NCBI GenBank assembly: GCA_003223835.1 | Contig: QHWR01000042.1 | Coordinates: 1-12,943 of the forward strand | Length of the DNA stretch: 12,943 nt | Reading direction: 5' to 3' | Origin: Acidobacteriota bacterium | GTDB taxonomy: Bacteria; Acidobacteriota; Vicinamibacteria; Vicinamibacterales; 2-12-FULL-66-21 | Shown here: positions 2,562-12,604 of the stretch, piece by piece | Layout of the letters: every line of letters starts with the position of its first letter | How positions within the stretch are numbered: the stretch's first letter is position 1 | Translations under genes and position numbers: made by a program | Notes under the pieces: model-generated | Told to the model about the DNA's origin: nothing | The model's input: only the letters and a program-made list of their open reading frames with translations | Database searches by the model: none

Positions 2562-2632
2562 CCAAATGCTAAATGCCAAAGAGACCCTGATTCGGATCCC
2601 TTTTGGCATTTGTCATTTGGCATTTGGCATTG
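2562..2632. terminator. AT-rich hairpin between convergent genes; arms built from heptamer tandem repeats (CCAAATG/CTAAATG versus TGGCATT x4)
   Basis: The left arm ccaaatgctaaatgccaaa (2562-2580) is near-perfectly complementary to tttggcatttgtcatttgg (2602-2620), giving a ~19-bp stem with 1-2 mismatches and a 21-nt loop. The right arm continues with two more TGGCATT units through 2632. It lies between the stop of the 2094 gene (2552) and the stop of msrA (2636). The local AT-richness is exceptional for this window. Confidence 0.6.
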
Positions 2633-2635
2633 ACG

Positions 2636-3286
2636 CTAGGTCTTTACAGCGACGCCCACCGGACAGCTCACCCCCGTGCCGCCGAGGCCGCAGTAGCCGG
2701 CCGGATTCTTCGCCAGATACTGCTGGTGGTAGTCCTCCGCGTAGTAGAACTCCGGCGCGTCGACGATCTCGGTCGTGATCCGGCCGTAGCCGGCGGCGGT
2801 CAGCATCCGCTGATACGCGTCGCGCGAGCGTTCCGCCGCGTCGCGCTGCGCCGGGGAGAAGACGTAGATCCCGGATCGATACTGCGTGCCGGCGTCGTTC
2901 CCCTGCCGCATGCCCTGTGTGGGATCGTGACTCTCCCAGAACACCTTCAGCAGATCGTCGTAGGAGATCTTGTTGGGATCGAACACGACGAGGACGACTT
3001 CCGCGTGTCCCGTCATGCCGCTGCACACCTCGCGGTACGTCGGATTCGGCGTGATCCCGGCCGCGTAGCCGACCGCCGTCGTATAGACGCCGGGGAGCTG
3101 CCAGAACTTGCGCTCCGCCCCCCAGAAGCAGCCGAGCCCGAACATCGCGCGCTCGAGCCCGGAGGGAACCGTCCCCTGCAGCGGCGCGTCGAGCACGTAA
3201 TGCTTCGCCGGCACCGGCATGCGATCGTCGCGCCCCTTCAACGCCTGTTCGCGCGTGGGCATCTTCAGCTTGTTTTCGAACATCAT
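2636..3286 (-). CDS. msrA: Peptide methionine sulfoxide reductase A (MsrA)
   Basis: The translation contains the MsrA active-site signature GLGCFWGAE plus [12 protein letters not shown] and [10 protein letters not shown], and full length is consistent with MsrA. I chose ATG 3286 (MMFENKLK...) as the start. The ORF track's 18-aa N-terminal extension (start 3340) is encoded entirely by the heptamer repeat array and overlaps the upstream gene's stop. Confidence 0.9.
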
Positions 3287-3291
3287 GTTTT

Positions 3292-3327
3292 CTGCCTTCC
3301 TGCCTTCTGCCTTCTGCCTTCTGCCTT
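3292..3327. repeat. Heptanucleotide tandem repeat (CTGCCTT)x5 on the + strand, i.e. (AAGGCAG)x5 on the minus-strand mRNA, in the 45-nt spacer between the zinc-ribbon/TM gene stop and the msrA start
   Basis: The + strand reads tctgccttcctgccttctgccttctgccttctgccttccg. On the minus-strand transcript this is a purine-rich run of AAGG(C)AG units ending 5 nt before the msrA ATG. Confidence 0.9.
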
Positions 3328-3332
3328 CCGCA

Positions 3333-4427
3333 TTACCCATTCCCCTGCGCCAGCAGGAAGATGATGATCAGGATGATCACGCCCAGCACGATCAGCGCGA
3401 TTTTCCACGGGCTCTTCGGGTACTGCCCGGCCATCCGCCCGCTGTGGCCGTTCACGATCAGCTGATAGACCTTCGCGGCGTACGTGTACGTCAGCAGCCA
3501 GACCGGCACCAGGATGTGCTTGAACGTCTGGCCCGAGTACGTCGGTTGGATCTGCAGGTTGCGAAACGTGTCGCCCGGAATCTGCGCCGCGCAGAGATCG
3601 TAGAGCTTGCGCGTCATCTGCTCCTGCGACGCCTTCGCCGCGTCGAGCAGCACCACCTGGTAGTGCTCGACGATGAAGCCGGACAAGTACGCCGTGTCGT
3701 ACGGCGTCAGCTCGTTCGTCATGAACGGCTCCACCTGTCTCAGCAGCGCCTGGGAGACGCCGTGCGTCCCCGGCACCGGCTCGTCGTCGAAGAAATGACG
3801 CACGACGCCGGACGCGGGTTCCCAGCGGACCTGCCGTACCTGGCGCGTCTGCGTGCGGCCGCCTTCCATGTACGACTCGGTCGTGTAGTAGTAGTGGCCC
3901 GCTTCCGCGTTCCACGGACAGACGACTTGCGCGTCAAACGTCCAGTACGGGATGTAGACGCCCCGCACCGTATCCACGAGCGCGCGCGTTTTGAGCGAGC
4001 CGGGCGCGAGCCACTTGCTTTTGTACCACCGGCGGATCTGTTCGCGCACGGTGCTTTCCGGCACCTTGAACGGGAGCAGACTCTGCGGCCGGATCGGCGC
4101 CTTGATTTCCTGGTAATCCACCAGCTCCGGCGATCCGCAGAATTCGCAGCGCTGGCCGACGCGCGCCGGATCGAACACCGACACCGCCTTGCAGCTCCGG
4201 CACTGCACGGTCCGCCGCTCGACTTGCCAGCCGCGCGCCTCGTCGGGCAGTTCTCGCAGCGCTTTCACGAGATCCAGCTCGACGATCGCGCCGGCCTGCG
4301 TCACGTCGTACGGCGCTTCCGTGCCGCAGAACGGACAGACCAGCTTCTGCTTGCCCGGATTCCATTCAGCCTGCGCGCCGCAGGCGGGACAGGGATGTTT
4401 CTCGATCGCGGAAACGGGGTCGGGCAT
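3333..4427 (-). CDS. Double zinc-ribbon protein with a C-terminal transmembrane helix (function unknown)
   Basis: N-terminal [23 protein letters not shown] and [24 protein letters not shown] give two CxxC...CxxC zinc ribbons. A ~250-aa central domain follows. The C-terminus [20 protein letters not shown] is a TM helix. The start lies 14 nt after the stop of the SPFH gene on the same strand, suggesting co-transcription. Composition is coherent and not Arg-biased. Confidence 0.7.
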
Positions 4428-4441
4428 TTAAACCGAGAACC

Positions 4442-5470
4442 CTATTTCGACAGATATTCATCCAGCGCCGACCGTTTCACGCGCCAGGATGTGCCGATCT
4501 TCTTCCCCGCCAGTTCACCCGACTGAAGAATCGTCATGACGTCGGATTCGGGAACGCCCAGCGCCTTGGCGACGTCGGCGGGCGACAGCAGCTCCCCGGT
4601 CGCATCCCCGGGCGCCGCGGCGGGCGCCGGCGCCTTGACGGCGACGCCCGCGACGCCTCCCTGCTGCTGCATGATCTGCTGCGCGATCGACAGGCCGACG
4701 GCCATCTCGGTCGCCATGCCGCCCGCCGAGCCCCCGCGCTCCATGCCTTGCGCCATCTGGAATTTCACGTAGTCGTTCAGGTTCCCGATCGCGGCCATGC
4801 TGGATCGCTTGTCGATCGCCGTTTCGACCTCCGCCGGCACCGACACGTTCTCGACGACGAACGTGGGCATCTCGATCCCGTACTTCGCGGTGATGACGGG
4901 GTTGATGAGCGGCAGCAGCGCCTGCCCCAGTTCCGAGTAGCGCTGCGCGACGTCGAACACGGGAATCTTCGCCGTCGCGATCGCCTCGGAAAAGACGCTG
5001 ACGACGCGGGATCGCATCGTATCGGCGAACTCGTCGAGCCGGAAGTTCTGATCCGATCCGGCGACCTCTTTCAGGAACAGCTTCGGGTTCGTGATGTGGA
5101 AGTCGTACGTGCCGAACGCGCGCGCGCGGACGACGCCCAGCTCCTGGTCGTGCATCATCACCGGATTCGCCGTGCCCCACTTGTTGCCGGTGAACAGCCG
5201 CGTGTTGAGGAAGTACACGTCCGCCTTGAACGGCGAGTTGAAGCCGTACTTCCAGGATTTCAGCTTGGTCAGGATCGGAATGTTGTCCGTCGTCAGCGTG
5301 TGCTTCCCCGGCCCGAACGTGTCGCCGAATTCGCCGAGGACGATGAGCTGCGCGCCGTTCTTGATCGCTTTGTCATCGTCGGGGAATCGAAACGAGAGCG
5401 TATCGCGCGAGTCGTCGGTCCATTCGATGACGTCGATCAGCTCGCCCTTGATGAAGTCCATCAAACCCAT
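4442..5470 (-). CDS. SPFH/band-7 superfamily protein (YdjI / COG4260-like) fused to a C-terminal excisionase-type helix-turn-helix domain
   Basis: The N-terminus MGLMDFIKGELIDVIEWTDDSRDTLSFRFP matches my memory of the conserved start of COG4260 ('virion core protein'-annotated) SPFH proteins. The C-terminus LLSPADVAKALGVPESDVMTILQSGELAGKKIGTSWRVKRSALDEYL fits the excisionase/HTH_17 pattern (L..ee.A..LgvS..tv.....G.lp..kiG...r..r..L.e.l). A Gly/Ala/Gln-rich linker lies between them. I chose ATG 5470, which has GGAG 9 nt upstream. The track's start at 5563 would add 31 aa encoded by the upstream heptamer repeat. Confidence 0.7.
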   Translation of the reverse strand: MGLMDFIKGELIDVIEWTDDSRDTLSFRFPDDDKAIKNGAQLIVLGEFGDTFGPGKHTLTTDNIPILTKLKSWKYGFNSPFKADVYFLNTRLFTGNKWGTANPVMMHDQELGVVRARAFGTYDFHITNPKLFLKEVAGSDQNFRLDEFADTMRSRVVSVFSEAIATAKIPVFDVAQRYSELGQALLPLINPVITAKYGIEMPTFVVENVSVPAEVETAIDKRSSMAAIGNLNDYVKFQMAQGMERGGSAGGMATEMAVGLSIAQQIMQQQGGVAGVAVKAPAPAAAPGDATGELLSPADVAKALGVPESDVMTILQSGELAGKKIGTSWRVKRSALDEYLSK

Positions 5471-5485
5471 GGTGAAAACTCCGAT

Positions 5486-5580
5486 CGGACAGATGGCGGA
5501 TGGAAGATGGTGGATGGCGGAACGGCGGCTGATAGGGGCATCGGATTTTCCGTCATCCGCCATCCGTCATCCGTCATCGG
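5486..5580. promoter_or_regulatory. Divergent intergenic region containing inverted arrays of heptamer tandem repeats: (GATGGCG/GATGGAA/GATGGTG/GATGGCG) versus (TCCGTCA/TCCGCCA/TCCGTCA/TCCGTCA)
   Basis: cagatggcggatggaagatggtggatggcggaacgg (5490-5525) and ccgtcatccgccatccgtcatccgtcatcgg (5550-5580) are imperfect reverse complements, each made of about four 7-bp units, separated by ~25 nt. The region lies between the SPFH gene start (5470) and the multi-zinc-ribbon gene start (5608). An AT-rich stretch aactagtatcgtattctaaactgagcc (5581-5607) directly precedes the + strand ATG and may be a promoter or leader. Confidence 0.7.
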
Positions 5581-5607
5581 AACTAGTATCGTATTCTAAA
5601 CTGAGCC

Positions 5608-6330
5608 ATGGCCCAGAGCGCCGGAAGCCTGCATTGTCCCAACTGCGGGGCGCCCGCGGCGGCGGCCGACGGGCGGTGTCCGTACTGCCGCGCGCGGCTG
5701 GCGACGGTGAGTTGTCCCTCGTGTTTCGGGCTGTTGTTCGAGGGCGCGGCGTACTGCCCGCACTGCGGCGCCCGGCGCGAGCGGCGCGCGGTCGGCGAGC
5801 CGGCCGGCGCCTGTCCCGCCTGCCGGAAGACACTCGCCCGGGTCGACGTCGGCTCCGCCACGCTGTTCGAGTGCGAGGGCTGCGACGGGATCTGGCTCGA
5901 CGCGGAGGGCTTCGAGAAGCTGTGCGCCGACCGCGAAGCGCAGGCGGCGGTCCTCCATCGCATCACCGCCCTCCCGCACGCGGCGACGGGGCCGGTCCGC
6001 TATCGCCCGTGCGTGCGGTGCGGCAAGCTCATGAACCGCGTGAACTTCGCGAAGGCGTCAGGCGTGATCGTGGACGTCTGCCGCGGGCACGGCACGTTCC
6101 TCGACGCCGGGGAGCTGCACCAGATCGTCACGTTCATCCACGGCGGCGGGCTCGATCGCGCGCGCGAACGCCAGCTCGAAGACCTGGCCGAACAAGAGCG
6201 CCGCCTCCGATCGCTCCAGAACGTTCAGCAGCGCACCGAGATGGACATGGGAGGCCTGTCCATCGAATTCAGCCGCGGGACGCACGTGCTGTCCTTCGAA
6301 CAGCTACTGCGGCATTTATTCGAATCCTGA
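5608..6330 (+). CDS. Multi-zinc-ribbon protein: two N-terminal CxxC pairs plus two zf-TFIIB-like (PF13453-type) zinc-ribbon modules
   Basis: CPNCGAPAAAADGRCPYC and CPSCFGLLFEGAAYCPHCG are zinc ribbons. CPACRKTL...CEGCDGIWLDAEGFEKL and CVRCGKLMNRV...VDVCRGHGTFLDAGELHQIV each match the zf-TFIIB-like pattern C..C.....[5-10]...C..C.G.WLD.gEl. The C-terminal ~50 aa is charged, helical and probably coiled-coil. The stop TGA is at 6328-6330. Confidence 0.75.
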   Translation: MAQSAGSLHCPNCGAPAAAADGRCPYCRARLATVSCPSCFGLLFEGAAYCPHCGARRERRAVGEPAGACPACRKTLARVDVGSATLFECEGCDGIWLDAEGFEKLCADREAQAAVLHRITALPHAATGPVRYRPCVRCGKLMNRVNFAKASGVIVDVCRGHGTFLDAGELHQIVTFIHGGGLDRARERQLEDLAEQERRLRSLQNVQQRTEMDMGGLSIEFSRGTHVLSFEQLLRHLFES

Positions 6331-6333
6331 TCG

Positions 6334-6361
6334 GTTCGGGGTTCGACCCCGAACCCCGAAC
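6334..6361. terminator. GC-rich hairpin (12-bp perfect stem gttcggggttcg/cgaaccccgaac with a 4-nt loop ACCC) between convergent genes; each arm consists of two heptamers
   Basis: Read directly: gttcggggttcg-accc-cgaaccccgaac. It sits between the zinc-ribbon gene stop (6330) and the msrB stop (6362). There is no U-tract on either strand, so it may act as an RNA-stability or Rho-dependent element instead of a canonical intrinsic terminator. Confidence 0.6.
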
Positions 6362-6763
6362 TCATTTCGGCTCGAATCTCAGCGCGATGCCGTTGATGCA
6401 GTAGCGTTGCCCCGTCGGCGGCGGGCCGTCGGGGAACACGTGACCGAGATGGCTGCCGCACCGGGCGCAGTGCACTTCGGTCCGCGTGCCGTAGCTCCGA
6501 TCCACGGTCTCGCCGATCGCGCCCGCCGTCGGCGCATGGAAACTTGGCCAGCCGGTGCCCGAGTTGAACTTCGTGTCGTTCGTGAAGAGTTCCTGTCCGC
6601 AGCCCGCGCAATAGAACGTGCCGGCGCGCTTCTCGGTGTTCAGCGCGCAACTGCCCGGACGTTCCGTCCCGTGCTCGCGCATGATGTGGTACTGCTCGGG
6701 CGTCAGCATGCGCCGCCACTCTTCCTCCGTCCGCTGGACGGGGAACGTCTCCGTTTTGTTCAT
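6362..6763 (-). CDS. msrB: Peptide methionine sulfoxide reductase B (MsrB/SelR), zinc-binding type
   Basis: CAGCGQELF...[11 protein letters not shown] and [35 protein letters not shown] carry the MsrB signatures: two CxxC zinc-binding pairs, the GWPSF motif and the catalytic RYCINS-like motif. AGGA lies 8 nt upstream of the ATG. The start is 12 nt after the asmA stop on the same strand. Confidence 0.9.
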
Positions 6764-6774
6764 CGGCTGGTCCT

Positions 6775-8367
6775 CTAATCCTTCGACCCGAACACGCGGC
6801 CGACATCGAGACCGAACTTCGGGTCCTTCCGCATGCCGTTGATCTTAATCGGAACGACGGCCCCCGCGCCGTTCTTCCGAAACAACGGGTCGACGGCCTT
6901 CAGCAGCAGGCGCTTGACGCCGGTCGTGCCGGTCGCTTCGGAGATCGGCGCCTGCATCCGGAGCGTGCCGGCGAAGTCGAGCGCCTCGCTCCGCAGCGCA
7001 TACGTGCCCGCGAGCGTGATCTCCGCGCCCGGGACCCCGAACTGAAGGTTCGCGAACCGCACCACTCCGTTGCCCATCGTGAATCGCCCGCGCATGTCCG
7101 ACAGCACCCGGCCTACCGGCTCGTCTTTCTGCTTCCCTTGCCCGTGGCGGCTGAGATCGGTGATCTTGCGCTGCACTTCGGCGTCCGTGAATCGTGCGTC
7201 GTCCACGGCGAACGTCCCGTCGAGACGCAGGCGATCGGCGACCTTGCGGTGTTCCGGCGGCAGCACCAGCTTCGTCTTCATCGTCAGGCGTCCCTCCATC
7301 ACGGCCTTGGAGGACTTGACCGCGAGCTTCAGCACGTCTTCGACGCGCCCCTTCGGCATCACGACGTCGAGGTCGACGGTGCGGCCGTGGCCATGCGGCC
7401 CGCCGACGATCGCGCCGCGCGCGGTCAGCGACGTCTGGAGAAACTGCGCGTCCACCTGTTCGAGGTACGTGTCGCCGTTCGTGCCGTCCACGATGGCGCG
7501 AAAACGCGTGTCGAGCGGCACGCCCTGTCCCGCGACGTCTACGCTGAAGTCCGGTGTCTTCGTGGTGCCGTTGACGCGGATTCGCTCGAGCCGGCCGTAG
7601 AAGTTGCCTTTCGACGACAACGTCCCGCCCAGACCGTCGATCGTGTTCAGGTCCGCGTGGGTGAAGTCGTACTTGCCGTCGAGCGGCGAAGATCCGGGGC
7701 CGTCCGCGATCCACGGGCCGAACGTGCCGGTCGTCTCGATGTCGCCGCGCGGGATCGGATTGGTCAGCGTCGCCCGAAACGGCATGCGTCGATCGAAACC
7801 CAGCGAGTCGACGCGGAGATGATGAATCGTGAAACGTTTCGGTTCCCTTCCGGACTGCTTCGGCAGAATCGTCAGGACCGCATCGTCCGAGACGAGATGG
7901 TCGATGAGGACGGGGCCCTGCCGATCGGGTTCTTTGCCGCGCGCCCCGTCCTTGTCGTTGTCGTTGTCCTTGTCCTTGTCGTCCTCGTGCCGGTTCAGCC
8001 CGCCCGGCGGGATGTTGATGCGCAGCCCTTCCAGCATGACGCTCCTGAACCGCCGCGGCCGATGGAGAAGGCCGAGCACTCCGCCTTCCGCATAAAAATG
8101 CTTCACTTCGATCAATGGCGGGCCGCCGGTCTGACGCTTGTGGTGGACGCGCAGGCCGTCGCCCGTGATGCTCAGCGTCGGAAAGGTCGAGACGTGAAAG
8201 CTTTCCAGCTCGACGCGGGCGTCGAGGTGTTGACTCATCGCGTCGAGAAGTGCCGCGTTGAGGACGCTGGTGCGGGAGCCGCCGACGGCGACGATCCAGA
8301 GCGTGACGAGCACGCCGCCGAAGATGGCGATGAACCACCGCGCAACGCGCAGAGCGGGTTTACGCAC
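6775..8367 (-). CDS. AsmA-family outer-membrane biogenesis protein (530 aa) with an N-terminal TM anchor
   Basis: N-terminus [30 protein letters not shown] is a TM anchor. A large, soluble, beta-rich periplasmic region follows, with the general architecture and Gly/Asp/Thr-rich composition of AsmA-like proteins. An internal low-complexity [11 protein letters not shown] run is encoded by a hexamer DNA repeat at ~7948-7988. The family call rests on overall architecture and on remembered N-terminal similarity. Confidence 0.65.
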
Positions 8368-8539: not shown

Positions 8540-10510
8540 ATGGCTAGAAGTCAGGTCTTTGTCAGCTACAGCCACAAGGACGCGAAGTGGCTGGGCGAGC
8601 TGAAGAAGTTTCTTACGCCTCTCGTTCGGGACCAGCCGATCGAAATCTGGGAGGACACGAAGCTTCGCGCCGGCGACAAGTGGCTGCCGGGGATCGAAGG
8701 CGCCCTGAGCTCCGCGAAGGTCGCGGTGCTCCTCGTCAGCGCGAATTACCTCGCGTCGGACTTCATCGCGTCCCGCGAAATGCCCCCCATCTTCGAGGCG
8801 CAGACGCGAGAGGGGCTCCGGATCATCTGGATCCCGATCAGCGCCAGCGCGTACGCCGTGACGCCGATCAAGAACTTTCAGGCCGCGTCCGACCCCGCGC
8901 GGCCGCTCGATACGTTCACGGCCGCCAAACGCAACCAGCTCTGGGTGGAGATCTGCGACGCGATCGTCGAGGCGATGGAGCTGCCGGCGGCCGCTGCTGA
9001 AACCCCGGTCGAGGACGATGGTCCGGTCGAAGACCGAGTGGTGCTGCTGTACAAACGCGGCGCCCAGCCCGACGAACAGCTGCTCCACGCGCTCGAGACC
9101 GAGCTTGGCAGGCGCGGGGTTCCTGTGTGGATCGATCGGCACCTGCGCGTCGGGATGGATTGGGCGCGCGCGATTTCCGACCGCCTCGAACGGGCGGTGG
9201 CCGTGATCCCGCTGCTTTCCGCGCAGTCGGTGCACAGCGAGATGCTGTCCTACGAAGTGCAGGTCGCGCATCAGGCTCGGCAGCGCAACGGCGGCCGTCC
9301 GAAAATCCTGCCGGTGCGCGTCCAGTTCGACGACGCCCTCGTGTCGCCGCTCGACATTCTCAGTCCGCTGCAGCACGCGGTGTGGACGGGCGGTCAGGAC
9401 ACGCCGCGCGTCATCGCCGAATTGAACGCCGCCCTCGCGGCGGAGTCGCACGAGATTCCGCGCTACGTCCCGCCGGTCGGCGGCGCCCTGCCGCTCGACG
9501 ACGAGTTCTACATCGCGCGGCAGGCGGATACGGATCTGGCCGCGGCGATCCGGCGGAAGGAAAACATCATCCTGCTGAAGGGCGCGCGTCAGATGGGCAA
9601 GACGTCGCTGCTCATCCGCGGCTCGAAAGAAGCGCGGACGGCGGGCGCCCGCACCGTCTACATCGACTACCAGAAACTGAACCTCACGCAGCTCGTGTCG
9701 CTCGACGTGTTCTACCGCAGCCTCTGCGAGTGGCTGGCGGAGGAGCTCGAGCTCGAGGTGAGCGTCGAGTCCTTCTGGAACACGCGGCGCACGGCGAACA
9801 TGAACTTCGAGCGGTTCCTCGAGCGCGAGCTGCTCCCCCGGGTGGGCGGCCACTTCGTTCTCGCGATGGACGAGACGGACCGGCTGTTCGACTTTCCTTT
9901 CAAGGACGAGTTCTTCGGCCTGCTGCGGTCCTGGTACAACGAACGCCAGATGAACCCGGACTCGGCGTGGCGGCGCATGACGATCCTGATTGCCTACGCG
10001 ACGGAGCCGCACCTGTTCATCTCGAACCTGAGTCAGTCGCCGTTCAACGTCGGCCTGGCGCTCGATCTGGCGGACTTCACGCCCGAACAGACCGGGCGGA
10101 TGAACCAGCTATACGGGAGTCCTCTGACCGCGCTGTCAAAGGTCACGTCGTTCCACAACCTGGTGGGAGGGCAACCGTATCTCGTCAGGCGCGGCCTGTT
10201 CGAGATCCGCACGAAGAACTACTCCATCGAGCAGTTCGAGGAGCTCGCCGTCAAAGACGATGGACCGTTCGGCGATCATCTGCGCCGCATGCTCGTCGTC
10301 CTCGCCCGCAATCCGCCGCTCTGCGAGGCGATGCGGGAGCACCTGCGCACGCGCCGGACCGTCGCGACCGCGGACTTCTACCGCCTGCGGCGCGCGGGCA
10401 TTCTGGTCGGCGGGAGTCCGCTGGAAGCGAGGCCGCGCTGCCGTTTGTACGCCGAGTACCTGCAGCGACATCTGGACGCGGTCCAGAGCGCCGCGACCGT
10501 CGCGGGGTGA
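8540..10510 (+). CDS. Tandem TIR domains fused to an AAA_35-type (PF14516-like) P-loop NTPase domain
   Basis: GGAGGAGG lies 8 nt upstream of the ATG. TIR domain 1, VFVSYSHKDAKWLGELKKFL...IWEDTKLRAGDKWLPGIEGALSSAKVAVLLVSANYLASDFIASREM, matches the bacterial TIR_2 pattern (FISYsh.D......L...L......W.D...l..G......I..ai..s...i.lvS..y..S.wc..E). A second TIR-like module runs ~VVLLYKRG...VWIDRHLRVGMDWARAISDRLERAVAVIPLLSAQSVHSEMLSYEV. The NTPase region has Walker A ILLKGARQMGKTSLL, Walker B FVLAMDETD, and the family-typical C-terminal GGQPYLV motif. Confidence 0.8.
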   Translation: MARSQVFVSYSHKDAKWLGELKKFLTPLVRDQPIEIWEDTKLRAGDKWLPGIEGALSSAKVAVLLVSANYLASDFIASREMPPIFEAQTREGLRIIWIPISASAYAVTPIKNFQAASDPARPLDTFTAAKRNQLWVEICDAIVEAMELPAAAAETPVEDDGPVEDRVVLLYKRGAQPDEQLLHALETELGRRGVPVWIDRHLRVGMDWARAISDRLERAVAVIPLLSAQSVHSEMLSYEVQVAHQARQRNGGRPKILPVRVQFDDALVSPLDILSPLQHAVWTGGQDTPRVIAELNAALAAESHEIPRYVPPVGGALPLDDEFYIARQADTDLAAAIRRKENIILLKGARQMGKTSLLIRGSKEARTAGARTVYIDYQKLNLTQLVSLDVFYRSLCEWLAEELELEVSVESFWNTRRTANMNFERFLERELLPRVGGHFVLAMDETDRLFDFPFKDEFFGLLRSWYNERQMNPDSAWRRMTILIAYATEPHLFISNLSQSPFNVGLALDLADFTPEQTGRMNQLYGSPLTALSKVTSFHNLVGGQPYLVRRGLFEIRTKNYSIEQFEELAVKDDGPFGDHLRRMLVVLARNPPLCEAMREHLRTRRTVATADFYRLRRAGILVGGSPLEARPRCRLYAEYLQRHLDAVQSAATVAG

Positions 10511-10516
10511 TCGCCC

Positions 10517-12604
10517 ATGCTGACCTATTCCGATCGGATCACGCCCTTGCGGGCCGCGGACAACGCGTTCTTCATCACCGGCGGCACGCTCAGCCCCGGC
10601 GCGGCGAGCTACGTCGAGCGCGCGGCCGATTCGCAGTTGTACGACGTGCTGCTGCGGATGGACTTCTGCTACGTCCTCGACACCCGCCAGATGGGCAAAT
10701 CGTCGCTCATGGCCCGCGCGGCGCATCGCCTGCGCACCTACGCGAACTTCTCGGTCGCGACGATCGATCTGAGCGGGCTCGGACAGACCGTTTCCGCGGA
10801 CCAGTGGTACGACTCGCAGCTCGTCTCGATTGGGAAGGCGCTCAACCTGCAGCGCGAGCTGGAGGAATTCGCGGACGCACACGACCGCCTGGCCCCGCTC
10901 GATCGCTGGAAGCGCGCATTTACCGAGGTCCTGCTGCCCCGGATCGAGACGAACCTCGTCGTTTTCGTCGACGAGATCGACTACGTGCGCAGCCTGCCGT
11001 TTTCGACCGACGAGTTTTTCGCCGGCATCCGCGAGTTCTACAATCGCCGTCCGTTCGAACCGGAGTTCAACCGACTGACCTTCTGCCTGCTTGGCGTCGC
11101 GACCCCTTCGGATCTCATTCGATCGGACGAGACCACCCCGTTCAATATCGGCCGCCGGATAACGCTCACCGACCTCTCGGAAGAGGACGCGGGCATCGCC
11201 GTCCTGCAGACGGGGCTGTCGCGTGACGACCGCGTCGGGCGCGCGATGTTGCACCGGGTCCTCCATTGGACGGGCGGACACCCGTACCTGACGCAGCGGC
11301 TCTGCGAGGAAGCGACCAGGATCGGCCGCGACGGCAAACGGGCGTATACGTCCGACGCGCACGGCGTCGATGCCGCGTGCCACACCCTCTATTTGTCGAA
11401 GAGCGCGCGCGACCAGAACGACAACCTGCGATTCGTCGCCAAGCGGATCGAGGAGTCGGCGAATCCCGTGGAGGCGGTGTCGCAGTACGCGCGGATCCGC
11501 CGCGGCGAGAAGGTCCGCGGGACGGGAACAGAACCGTGGGTCGACGTCCTGCGCCTCAGCGGGATCGCGCGACTCGTGGGCAACGAGCTCGAGGTCAGGA
11601 ACGAGATTTACCGGCGCGTCTTCGACGAGGCGTGGATCGAAGCGAACCTCACGCCCGACGAGCTGCTCCGGCAGCGCCACGCCGCGCGCGATGCGCGGCG
11701 GCGCACGCTGACATATATGACCGCCGTCGGCGCGGTGCTGGCGCTGTTGGTGCTGACGCCTCTCAGTTTTCTCTTGTACTCGAAGAATCGCACATTGGAT
11801 TCCCAGCAGCGGAGCTTGGTGGACGTGACCCAGATGCTCCGACACAGGACGGCCGACCTGCAGGAGCAGCGCGACCGTCAGGCGGACACCAACAGGCAAC
11901 TCGCCGCAGCCGGAAAGGCCAAAGACGCGGCCCTGGCAGAGGCGAACCGTCGCGCCGTCGAAATCGCGCGTCTGAAGCAACAGGTCGAGACGCAGAAGGA
12001 CACCGAGCTGCGCGATCAGTGGAGTCTGTTCAGCTCACGCGACCTGGCCAACGCGTCCCGGTTCGAGCGAATGCGTCAGCCGGGTTTCATCACCGGAAGT
12101 CTGCTGCTCAGCATCGAAGCCGCCGGACGGAGTCCGAGCGCGCCTGCGTACACCGCGCTCGTCGAAGCCATGCAGCTCGCGGCGCCTCGCGTCGGAACAT
12201 CGCACCCGTGGCAAATTCAGACGGGCAGCGTCGGCGCGGCGCTGAGCGGGTCACGCCGCTACATCGCGATGTGGAACGCGGCAGAAGGCATGTGCGTCCA
12301 CAACACCGACACTCCCGGGACCGTCGCGTGTGTGCCTCTCAATGACGCATCGCGCGGTGCCGTGGACGACAACGGCAACCGGACATCTGCAATGCGTGCC
12401 CAGAGGACGCGAGCCTGTCCCGTGCGCCGGCGCGCCCGACGCGATCGCCAAGCCCATCTTCAGCACGGACGGGAAGTATGTCGGCTGGCTCTCGGGCACG
12501 GGGTCGAACCAGCTGCACATCCTGGACCTGGCGACGGGAAGCCCGGCCGACGTTTCCGATCTGAACGCGCTGCTGCCCCGCGAACAAGAGACCGGCTCGC
12601 CTGA
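10517..12604 (+). CDS. AAA_35-type NTPase, then a single TM helix, a long coiled coil and a beta-propeller-like C-terminal region (paralogue of the upstream gene's NTPase domain); the 3' end is disrupted by an apparent frameshift
   Basis: Walker A YVLDTRQMGKSSLMARA, Walker B LVVFVDEID and the family motif HWTGGHPYLTQRL are present. The TM helix is TYMTAVGAVLALLVLTPLSFLLY. It is followed by ~90 aa of Q/R/E/A-rich coiled coil, then IAMWNAAEGMCVHNTDTPGTVACVPLNDASRGAVDDNGN. From ~12400 the annotated frame turns into Arg-rich noise (RTRACPVRRRARRDRQ...) up to the stop at 12602-12604, so the last ~200 nt of this ORF are probably not the real frame. The start is 6 nt after the TIR gene stop, suggesting translational coupling. 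Confidence 0.7.
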   Translation: MLTYSDRITPLRAADNAFFITGGTLSPGAASYVERAADSQLYDVLLRMDFCYVLDTRQMGKSSLMARAAHRLRTYANFSVATIDLSGLGQTVSADQWYDSQLVSIGKALNLQRELEEFADAHDRLAPLDRWKRAFTEVLLPRIETNLVVFVDEIDYVRSLPFSTDEFFAGIREFYNRRPFEPEFNRLTFCLLGVATPSDLIRSDETTPFNIGRRITLTDLSEEDAGIAVLQTGLSRDDRVGRAMLHRVLHWTGGHPYLTQRLCEEATRIGRDGKRAYTSDAHGVDAACHTLYLSKSARDQNDNLRFVAKRIEESANPVEAVSQYARIRRGEKVRGTGTEPWVDVLRLSGIARLVGNELEVRNEIYRRVFDEAWIEANLTPDELLRQRHAARDARRRTLTYMTAVGAVLALLVLTPLSFLLYSKNRTLDSQQRSLVDVTQMLRHRTADLQEQRDRQADTNRQLAAAGKAKDAALAEANRRAVEIARLKQQVETQKDTELRDQWSLFSSRDLANASRFERMRQPGFITGSLLLSIEAAGRSPSAPAYTALVEAMQLAAPRVGTSHPWQIQTGSVGAALSGSRRYIAMWNAAEGMCVHNTDTPGTVACVPLNDASRGAVDDNGNRTSAMRAQRTRACPVRRRARRDRQAHLQHGREVCRLALGHGVEPAAHPGPGDGKPGRRFRSERAAAPRTRDRLA

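Follow-up and report, generated by a model that had tools for sequence, protein, structure and literature searches.

Tandem arrays of 7-bp units, many of them paired as inverted repeats, occupy the spacers between genes in a 12,943-nt stretch of DNA (contig QHWR01000042.1, hereafter the window) from a soil bacterium of the Vicinamibacterales, Acidobacteriota, with a G+C content of about 66%. They raise the question of what such repeats are: RNA-level elements, such as terminators and stability or processing hairpins, or hypermutable simple-sequence repeats (SSRs). An earlier note on this DNA had named both possibilities and had compared the arrays to the short tandemly repeated repetitive (STRR) heptamers of cyanobacteria. 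We find that they belong to a clade-wide, nearly exclusively intergenic class of repeats, which consists of heptamers and octamers and also takes in higher-order units of 24 and 45 bp. Whole-unit indels, gain and loss of whole elements, replacement of arrays spacer by spacer and genome-specific unit families were all observed. We consider it probable that the arrays are slippage-driven, STRR-like intergenic repeat DNA, arising at the DNA level and expanding into unconstrained spacers. On the best reading of the evidence, they are mostly tolerated and not required, and constitute a genome property of many Vicinamibacterales, not a set of conserved regulatory elements.

Tandem arrays in the window

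Arrays were located with Tandem Repeats Finder (TRF) and by direct reading of the sequence. Both agreed with the earlier note on the four sites it had listed (sites 1 to 4 below): all are 7-bp tandem arrays and all lie in spacers between called genes. An inverted-repeat search likewise bore out the inverted pairing at sites 1, 3 and 4 and the single arm at site 2. There are six period-7 TRF rows in the window, all within its 966 bp of intergenic DNA, whereas 200 dinucleotide-preserving shuffles of the same 966 bp gave a mean of 0.025 and a maximum of 1; origin by chance is excluded. Altogether, arrays are present in five of the six window spacers of at least 30 bp. Copy numbers given by TRF range from 3.4 to 5.4 at sites 1-3 and come to only about two per arm at site 4.

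Site 1 lies between the convergent stop codons of orf152 (2552) and msrA (2636). Its left arm, (AAATGCC)x3.4 at 2557-2580, which the earlier note had read as CCAAATG/CTAAATG, pairs as a hairpin with the right arm, (TTTGGCA)x4.3 at 2602-2631, and the predicted folding energy is -29.1 kcal/mol (z -4.1) on the plus strand and -40.4 kcal/mol (z -7.7) on the minus strand. Site 2 (3290-3328, minus strand) is a single arm of TTCTGCC x5.4 with one 1-nt insertion, and reads (AAGGCAG)x5 on the msrA strand. It fills the 46-bp spacer between the stop codon of a Zn-ribbon gene and the msrA ATG, ending 4 nt before the latter, and the sole Shine-Dalgarno-like AAGG of msrA is supplied by its ATG-proximal unit. 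Folding of site 2 gave no structure (z -1.9 and +0.4).

Site 3 is a hairpin (5492-5578) between the divergent starts of a gene for an SPFH protein with a helix-turn-helix (HTH) domain and a second Zn-ribbon gene. It is built of (GATGGCG)x4.3 at 5492-5521 and (TCCGTCA)x4.3 at 5549-5578, and the two strands fold with -58.0 kcal/mol (z -4.0) and -45.5 kcal/mol (z -2.5). Site 4 is a 13-bp stem, GGTTCGGGGTTCG / CGAACCCCGAACT (6333-6345 with 6350-6362), with two units per arm and a TRF row of ACCCCGA x2.3 at 6346-6361. It is located between the convergent stops of the second Zn-ribbon gene (6330) and msrB, and the msrB stop codon lies inside the element; its folding energies are -25.9 kcal/mol (z -4.5) and -24.9 kcal/mol (z -3.6) for the two strands.

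A fifth, large inverted array, situated just beyond the region covered by the earlier note and missed there, lies between the stop of a presumed RHS fragment (1582) and orf152. Its left arm (1618-1811) consists of a 45-bp unit x4.4 and its right arm (1855-1979), inverted relative to the left, of the 24-bp unit TTCCGTGTGATCCGTGGCTAAATG x5.2, and the two blocks have in common an inverted 18-nt core, GCCACGGATCACACGGA. The arms are matched by pairs I1, I2 and I10 of the inverted-repeat search, and the whole spacer (1583-2054), folded as DNA, reaches -107 kcal/mol (z -3.2). The claim that every unit is exactly 7 bp long therefore holds for sites 1-4 only, as octamers and 24- and 45-bp units belong to the class too.

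Only a few bases separate the ends of the arrays from stop and start codons, from the Shine-Dalgarno sequence and from a -10-like box. Recognisable signals are spared in the window, namely the final AAGG of site 2, the GGAG ahead of SPFH and the box TATTCTA (5593-5599) before the ATG of the second Zn-ribbon gene. This box, about 10 nt upstream of the ATG, is kept in most relatives, several of which have TATTGTA or no clear copy; judged by sequence, it looks like a -10 element of a leaderless or near-leaderless mRNA, and the position expected for the corresponding -35 element is taken up by the site 3 hairpin. Among relatives, the divergent spacer between the SPFH and Zn-ribbon genes can be as short as 22-25 bp.

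Array turnover in strains and relatives

Next, we compared the window to closely related strains. Look-ups of protein clusters and exact contigs yielded 24 loci from independent assemblies (handles such as L178 denote individual loci), representing 23 distinct contigs, since L171 is the same scaffold as L179. Within the overlaps, identity to the window is 98.3-100%. These contigs are consensus sequences of natural populations, and assemblies of metagenomes or metagenome-assembled genomes (MAGs) can collapse, truncate or chimerise repeats. A metagenome scan with the Zn-ribbon protein found no close strain, the best match having 80% amino-acid identity.

Over 4.5 kb, L178 and the window are set apart by nine substitutions and three indels, the latter all within arrays. 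Gaps of 44 bp and 1 bp at site 5 amount to exactly one 45-bp unit fewer, and a 14-bp gap at site 2 to two heptamers fewer. Site 2 occurs as alleles of 5, 3 or 2 units in contigs that encode an identical MsrA protein. At site 1, the left arm has one CTAAATG unit more in L177, and the right arm is invariant in nine of ten strain-level contigs. Site 3 has gained one TCCGTCA unit in L181 relative to the window, to which five other full-length contigs are identical. Four contigs end inside the site 3 hairpin, as commonly happens to repeats of this type when short reads are assembled; at the same place L183 shows a stretch of N. L172 was not used for comparison of site 3, as its DNA upstream of SPFH is replaced by divergent sequence: positions 1-555 carry a clearly different Zn-ribbon gene and a 73-bp array-free spacer upstream of the SPFH start, and are either recombinant or an assembly chimera.

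Site 4 differs by presence or absence. It is identical in 11 strain contigs and missing in L170, L182 and L183, where the difference is a clean 31-bp indel flanked by TTCGG. In all three, msrB extends six codons further, into the Zn-ribbon gene, and the heptamer GGTTCGG is already present in the "empty" allele. Where the window has a 14-bp spacer (TTAAACCGAGAACC, 4428-4441) between the SPFH stop and the start of the first Zn-ribbon gene, L182 bears a 221-bp inverted GGTTCGG/CGAACC array, the Zn-ribbon gene itself being 99.2% identical. The unit family of this array is that of site 4 and also that of a 127-bp hairpin at the same spacer in the relative L002. Because L182 and L002 have a hairpin of the same family at this position, the 14-bp spacer is probably what is left of a GGGGTTC-family hairpin, or the seed of one.

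Arrays thus shift by whole units, and entire hairpins are gained or lost at about 1% divergence. A comparison of copy number across strains had been suggested in the earlier note; it shows whole-unit indels at sites 1, 2, 3 and 5 and presence or absence of site 4. Of the two possibilities considered there, this supports the hypermutable simple-sequence repeat, as whole-unit differences are found among contigs 98-100% identical to the window. Arrays that lengthen and shorten in whole units among near-identical strains bear the mark of slipped-strand mispairing.

We then asked how widespread such arrays are, using 40 Vicinamibacterales loci (734 kb) and, for comparison, the same gene neighbourhood in 40 loci of other taxa (641 kb). 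All are instances of one syntenic neighbourhood, about 21 kb per genome, and the source genome is seen over 13 kb. Genes were called with a simple caller based on G+C at third codon positions (GC3) and tuned to high G+C, which under-calls the comparison taxa (coding fraction 0.55). Period-7 TRF rows number 167 in the Vicinamibacterales loci and 24 in the other taxa. At a score of at least 40 and at least three copies, 91 of the period-7 arrays in the Vicinamibacterales loci are intergenic and 7 coding, and all 41 of period 8 are intergenic; the other taxa contain three intergenic and one coding period-7 array and none of period 8. The density of 7- and 8-bp arrays is accordingly about 20-fold above that of the other-taxa loci (rate test, p = 6e-24), and about 95% of these arrays in Vicinamibacterales are intergenic. 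The idea of an STRR-like, lineage-specific class in a non-cyanobacterial genome is thereby upheld, the lineage being Vicinamibacterales.

Periods of 7 and 8 dominate the spectrum of the relatives' loci, and arrays are present in about 30% of the spacers that exceed 15 bp. By gene orientation, the share is 29/76 (38%) for convergent, 83/261 (32%) for co-directional and 15/80 (19%) for divergent spacers, the last being depleted of arrays compared to all others (112/337; p = 0.01). An inverted partner within 350 bp was found for 44-51% of 176 merged arrays, as against 0-1% in a reversed-sequence control. The statement that arrays are mostly inverted is hence true of sites 1, 3, 4 and 5 in the window but of only about half of the arrays in relatives. 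Array length reaches 10-24 units, 38% of units contain a run of three G or three C, and single arrays in co-directional spacers more often have a purine-rich sense strand (27 vs 13, p = 0.04). Hairpins have folding energies from -45 to -213 kcal/mol, and many fill the spacer up to 0-13 nt from both flanking genes. Array load varies with lineage, from 0% of intergenic bases (L007, L010, L032, L035) to 31% (L002).

Several of these arrays deserve description in their own right. L027 (14304-15480) has very long inverted heptamer arrays, AGGGTTC x22.7 and ACCCTGC x15.6, around about 900 bp, in which a direct repeat of about 120 bp stands on each side of a lower-G+C core of about 500 bp; the structure could be a hairpin loop that has received an insertion or an array-bounded cassette. 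L006 (3766-4048) holds a near-perfect 283-bp palindrome (-213 kcal/mol), the outer arms of which are ACGGAGAC/CCGTGTCT octamers, and uses the words CACGGA/TCCGTG also found in the 1618-1979 element of the window. Many units contain 6-bp palindromes or restriction-type words (CAGCTG, GGATCC/GATC, GAATTC, GGATG), and a GGTTC/GAACC core recurs in units of many genomes.

Comparison of orthologous spacers around the conserved msrA-to-msrB block revealed how readily arrays are replaced. One and the same spacer may measure 2-30 bp and be array-free in some relatives, and in others hold 100-220 bp of inverted 7- or 8-mers with unrelated units. Between the SPFH stop codon and the following gene, for instance, where the window has 14 bp, L002 carries 127 bp of GGGTTCS, L020 179 bp of GGTCGTYC, L071 117 bp of GAATKCA and L055 166 bp of GGGTTCTG. 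L053 and L055, with flanks 92% identical, nevertheless hold unrelated arrays in the same spacers; the close pairs L103/L104 and L122/L136 were uninformative owing to rearrangement or lack of arrays. The earlier note had regarded invariant copy numbers, together with absence from syntenic relatives, as evidence against its proposal. Copy numbers do vary, and array-free orthologous spacers do occur in some relatives.

Units, on the other hand, are shared within genomes. Identical units occur in 13.9% of pairs of arrays at different sites of one genome, in 0.78% of pairs from different genomes and in 0.12% of pairs after the letters of one unit per pair had been shuffled, that is, sharing between spacers is 18-fold higher within than between genomes. 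The site 3 family (GGATGAC / TCCGTCA) is also present at two non-orthologous spacers of L001. Sites of the same family in relatives have neither conserved loops and lengths nor common termini.

Slippage, RNA function or mobility

How could such arrays originate? We propose a DNA-level origin, with arrays expanding into any spacer DNA that is not under constraint. An inverted pair would begin as a local inverted duplication, for example by template switch, each arm afterwards being homogenised largely on its own, and new sites would be seeded by copying from arrays already present in the same genome. If transcribed, inverted pairs would fold into very stable stem-loops; at the ends of convergent and co-directional genes, these could stop 3' exonucleases or serve as terminators that lack a U-tract, and the (AAGGCAG)n before msrA could tune translation by copy number. 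Such RNA effects look like by-products, tolerated or at times perhaps co-opted, and not like the reason for the arrays.

The opposite view, that hairpins are dedicated RNA elements (terminators lacking a U-tract, 3'-exonuclease barriers or cistron processing sites) kept for structure and not for sequence, much like repetitive extragenic palindromes (REPs) and bacterial interspersed mosaic elements (BIMEs), appears doubtful to us. It would account for the stability of the hairpins (-25 to -58 kcal/mol in the window, z -3.6 to -7.7, and the still lower values in relatives), for their abutting stop codons and for the greater frequency of arrays in convergent and co-directional than in divergent spacers. 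Arms of site 1 and of a hairpin in L017/L019 differ by transitions that give G-U pairs on the mRNA strand, and a mirrored order of variant units is seen in a few hairpins (L002 3857-3984, L019 5807-6007, L020 19841-19940). However, a hairpin selected as RNA should fold better on the transcribed strand, because G-U pairs become A-C mismatches on the complement, and no such asymmetry exists in 56 array-bearing co-directional spacers: the sense strand is better in 28 and worse in 28 (Wilcoxon p = 0.5). There is no excess of U 3' of 38 array hairpins, with 2.18 T per 10 nt in the terminator-relevant orientation vs 2.57. Nor is the mirrored order general: when units of one arm were permuted, 15 of 28 hairpins proved more stable in their real order (p = 0.49), with significance in three individual cases, and a general unit-by-unit co-evolution of the arms was dropped after this null permutation test. 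Rfam covariance models had no match in the whole window on both strands at E <= 1, and a scan of the window for consensus promoters and terminators gave no match at any site. Moreover, a partner arm is missing from about half of the arrays, the genes on either side of site 3 start divergently, and many hairpins, being 0-13 nt from the downstream start, would bury the ribosome-binding region. The elements are also dispensable, as orthologous spacers are empty in many relatives and in strains about 99% identical. Hairpins of this stability must fold if they are transcribed, and some RNA effect is possible; taken together, the results argue that RNA function is not what creates or maintains the arrays, and the RNA-level alternative of the earlier note finds no backing here.

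Recurrence of genome-specific unit families at several spacers could also point to mobility, i.e. to inverted arrays being non-autonomous elements, of the kind of miniature inverted-repeat transposable elements (MITEs) or of REP doublets forming hairpins (REPINs), copied by an enzyme encoded elsewhere and only remodelled by slippage. The GGATGAC family at non-orthologous spacers of the window genome and L001, the presence or absence of whole elements at about 99% identity (including the 31-bp indel at site 4 with its 5-bp direct repeat flanks) and the patchy load among close lineages, as if a trans-acting gene came and went, all fit such a scenario. We nevertheless hold it to be unlikely, as same-family sites have no conserved termini, loops or fixed length, the sites of the window have no dispersed non-tandem sequence in common (as REPs or MITEs would show), no transposase-like gene is among the 10 proteins of the window, and single-arm arrays are as common as hairpins; GGTTCGG in the "empty" site 4 allele fits local origin or microhomology-mediated deletion equally well. 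It is very improbable that arrays are platforms for copy-number-dependent gene control, whether as contingency or "rheostat" loci, as G-quadruplexes or as sites for single-strand-binding proteins with a 7-nt footprint, e.g. cold-shock proteins. Units in the window have no common motif and mostly lack G-runs, the neighbouring genes have ordinary housekeeping roles, arrays are found whatever the spacer context, and units at the same gene differ wholly between relatives, which is hard to fit with one conserved binding protein. What speaks for control of this type is site 2, ranging from 2 to 5 units just before the start of an unchanged msrA, the purine bias of co-directional single arrays, the G3 or C3 runs in 38% of units and published parallels, namely TAACTGA before start codons (PMC4679880) and the G-quadruplex-forming GGGAATC (PMC4692102). 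Finally, the breaks of several contigs inside site 3 and the N run might raise suspicion of assembly artefacts, but the same arrays are found base for base in 5-10 independent assemblies from different samples and pipelines, and equivalent ones in long-read MAG contigs longer than 1 Mb, which makes an artefact practically negligible.

Slippage-driven growth of tolerated repeat DNA has weak points as well. Slippage alone leaves the preference for 7-8 nt, the first inverted copy and the spread of families unexplained, and the steps proposed for these are inferred. The comparison rests on a single neighbourhood of about 21 kb per genome and on 13 kb of the source genome, with the relatives' genes taken from a GC3-based caller, and metagenome assemblies can collapse or break repeats, as the four contigs ending in site 3 and the N run of L183 illustrate. 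Most strain-level contigs have identical copies of sites 3 and 4, meaning that the arrays are not hypervariable on the shortest timescale, and the higher share of arrays in convergent (38%) and co-directional (32%) than in divergent (19%) spacers is what a 3'-end function predicts.

Since load ranges from 0 to 31% among sister lineages, recurrent families are genome-specific and whole hairpins appear at about 99% identity, there is room for an active process. We see a slim chance that a lineage-encoded enzyme or mobile system seeds and extends 7-8-nt repeats from genome-specific templates at hairpins or breaks. If so, this would be a new kind of self-propagating repeat DNA, with passive polymerase slippage not the main cause, and could also underlie the unexplained heptamer repeats of cyanobacteria and xanthomonads.

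Known repeat systems and the gene neighbourhood

The STRR heptamers are a feature of heterocystous cyanobacteria (Calothrix, Nostoc, Anabaena), reportedly described first by Mazel and colleagues in 1990, and the units of STRR1-3 are CCCCAGT, TTGGTCA and CAACAGT. The arrays studied here resemble them in having 7-nt tandem units, an intergenic location, some inverted stem-loop pairs and variability between strains and, judged from about 21 kb per genome, perhaps also in having several dispersed families per genome. They differ in host, an acidobacterium of about 66% G+C, in the inclusion of octamers and 24- and 45-bp units, in that about half of the arrays are inverted pairs and in a load that, within the loci examined, takes up as much as 31% of the intergenic DNA. 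None of the STRR1-3 units is identical to a unit of 126 heptamer arrays in any rotation on either strand, and the same is true of the other published units GGGAATC, GGGGAYT, TAACTGA and ATCTTTC, which have no identical unit here. As phylum and units differ, our arrays are not STRRs in the strict sense.

Intergenic heptamers have also been described in Xanthomonas (GGGAATC) and Nostoc PCC 7120 (GGGGA(C/T)T), where they form G-quadruplexes and a typical array has four units (Rehm et al. 2015, PMC4692102). They are under-represented between divergent genes, with some inverted pairs at convergent ends, and are found at the same gene pairs of related species with widely varying length and sequence, for which polymerase slippage was proposed (PMC4692102). 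Strong intergenic bias, depletion in divergent spacers, some inverted pairs and variability between relatives apply here, too. Unlike the one dominant G-rich quadruplex unit there, we find many unrelated units per genome, of which only 38% have a G3/C3 run, and arrays of up to 10-24 units instead of four. Sites in the window do not reach four tracts of at least three G, as needed for a G-quadruplex: AAATGCC, AAGGCAG and GATGGCG have no G3 run, and site 4 has two G4 tracts per arm. PMC4692102 also cites the cyanobacterial STRRs and credits to a 2007 survey a general excess of heptameric long SSRs in bacteria, and this excess has been tentatively ascribed to the DNA polymerase footprint (PMC4692102, PMC4679880). 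TAACTGA direct repeats, for which a role in translation was proposed, are known from marine Beggiatoaceae, some Cyanobacteria (Microcystis) and some Bacteroidetes (MacGregor 2015, PMC4679880). They often stand right before start codons, and only one of 170 sets is an indirect repeat (PMC4679880). Like the arrays reported here, they are intergenic heptamer direct repeats, their place before start codons being comparable to that of site 2, and close relatives have shorter, repeat-free spacers; unlike ours, they consist of a single unit, identical to none found here, and are almost never inverted.

REPs, BIMEs and REPINs of proteobacteria are fixed imperfect palindromes of 20-40 nt with conserved sequence, associated with the RAYT transposase. 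Our elements are similar to them as intergenic hairpins at 3' ends and between cistrons, with genome-specific families and presence or absence among strains, but are tandem arrays of variable length with no sequence conserved between sites, and no RAYT was noticed in the DNA examined. If RNA hairpins matter, REPs and BIMEs would be the likeliest functional analogy, by way of exonuclease protection and partial termination. Phase-variable SSRs of host-adapted pathogens are few per genome and linked to surface or virulence genes. With them our arrays share whole-unit copy changes between strains and, at site 2, a position in the msrA leader; they differ in flanking ordinary genes and in occupying about 30% of spacers. 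PMC12721329 deals with a Haemophilus influenzae example of these promoter or 5' untranslated region SSRs of the phase-variable, or "rheostat", type.

Searches of the literature pairing heptamer repeats with Acidobacteria, Vicinamibacter or Luteitalea, with incomplete coverage, returned nothing relevant. To the broad class of heptamer repeats, the present arrays add octamers, higher-order units, many inverted pairs and a very high load. Heptamer repeats have been known for decades, from cyanobacteria and later from xanthomonads. Vicinamibacterales, which are among the most abundant soil bacteria, carry such DNA in extreme form, in up to a third of the spacers examined and with hairpins often at -50 to -200 kcal/mol. 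Close lineages ranging from array-free to array-saturated, together with near-identical strains that differ by whole units and whole hairpins, provide a natural contrast by which the unit size of 7 nt, the spread of the repeats and any effect they have become testable. In practical terms, arrays break short-read assemblies, and they affect annotation of the clade because they shift stop codons (msrB, at site 4) and alter spacing in the ribosome-binding region.

The gene map of the window was built from the list of open reading frames, Pfam matches and the GC3-based caller, and the closest relatives of all its genes are MAGs of Vicinamibacterales or other Acidobacteriota. The conserved block consists of msrA (2636-3286, minus strand), the first Zn-ribbon gene (3333-4427, minus), the SPFH/band-7 gene with its HTH domain (4442-5470, minus), the second, zf-TFIIB-type Zn-ribbon gene (5608-6330, plus) and msrB (6362-6763, minus). 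The SPFH protein has its nearest relatives in Vicinamibacterales MAGs at 75-84% amino-acid identity. Compared to sister strains (e.g. L162, L164, L165 and L181), the window lacks 30 bp, in frame, within the SPFH gene near 5337 and 3 bp within msrB near 6486; because the former deletion is private to the window, the exact SPFH protein has no database record.

Upstream of the block, on the plus strand, lie orf152 (2094-2552), encoding a small protein with no Pfam match, and a gene (299-1582) for a DUF6531 and RHS-repeat protein of just 427 aa, which may be an RHS fragment and stands directly 5' of the large 45/24-bp inverted array. Downstream follows a minus-strand gene (6775-8367) for a 530-aa protein without Pfam match. 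It contains, at 7948-7982, the 6-bp in-frame repeat GTCCTT x5.5, which codes for a short Asp/Lys/Asn-rich run and is an ordinary coding repeat not related to the intergenic arrays. Two adjoining plus-strand genes complete the window, one for a TIR-AAA_35 protein of 656 aa (8540-10510) and one for an AAA_35 protein of 695 aa (10517-12604). Their architecture is reminiscent of STAND/TIR defence or signalling proteins, and in L162 the second gene runs on to a product of 1659 residues with matches to WD40/beta-propeller domains.

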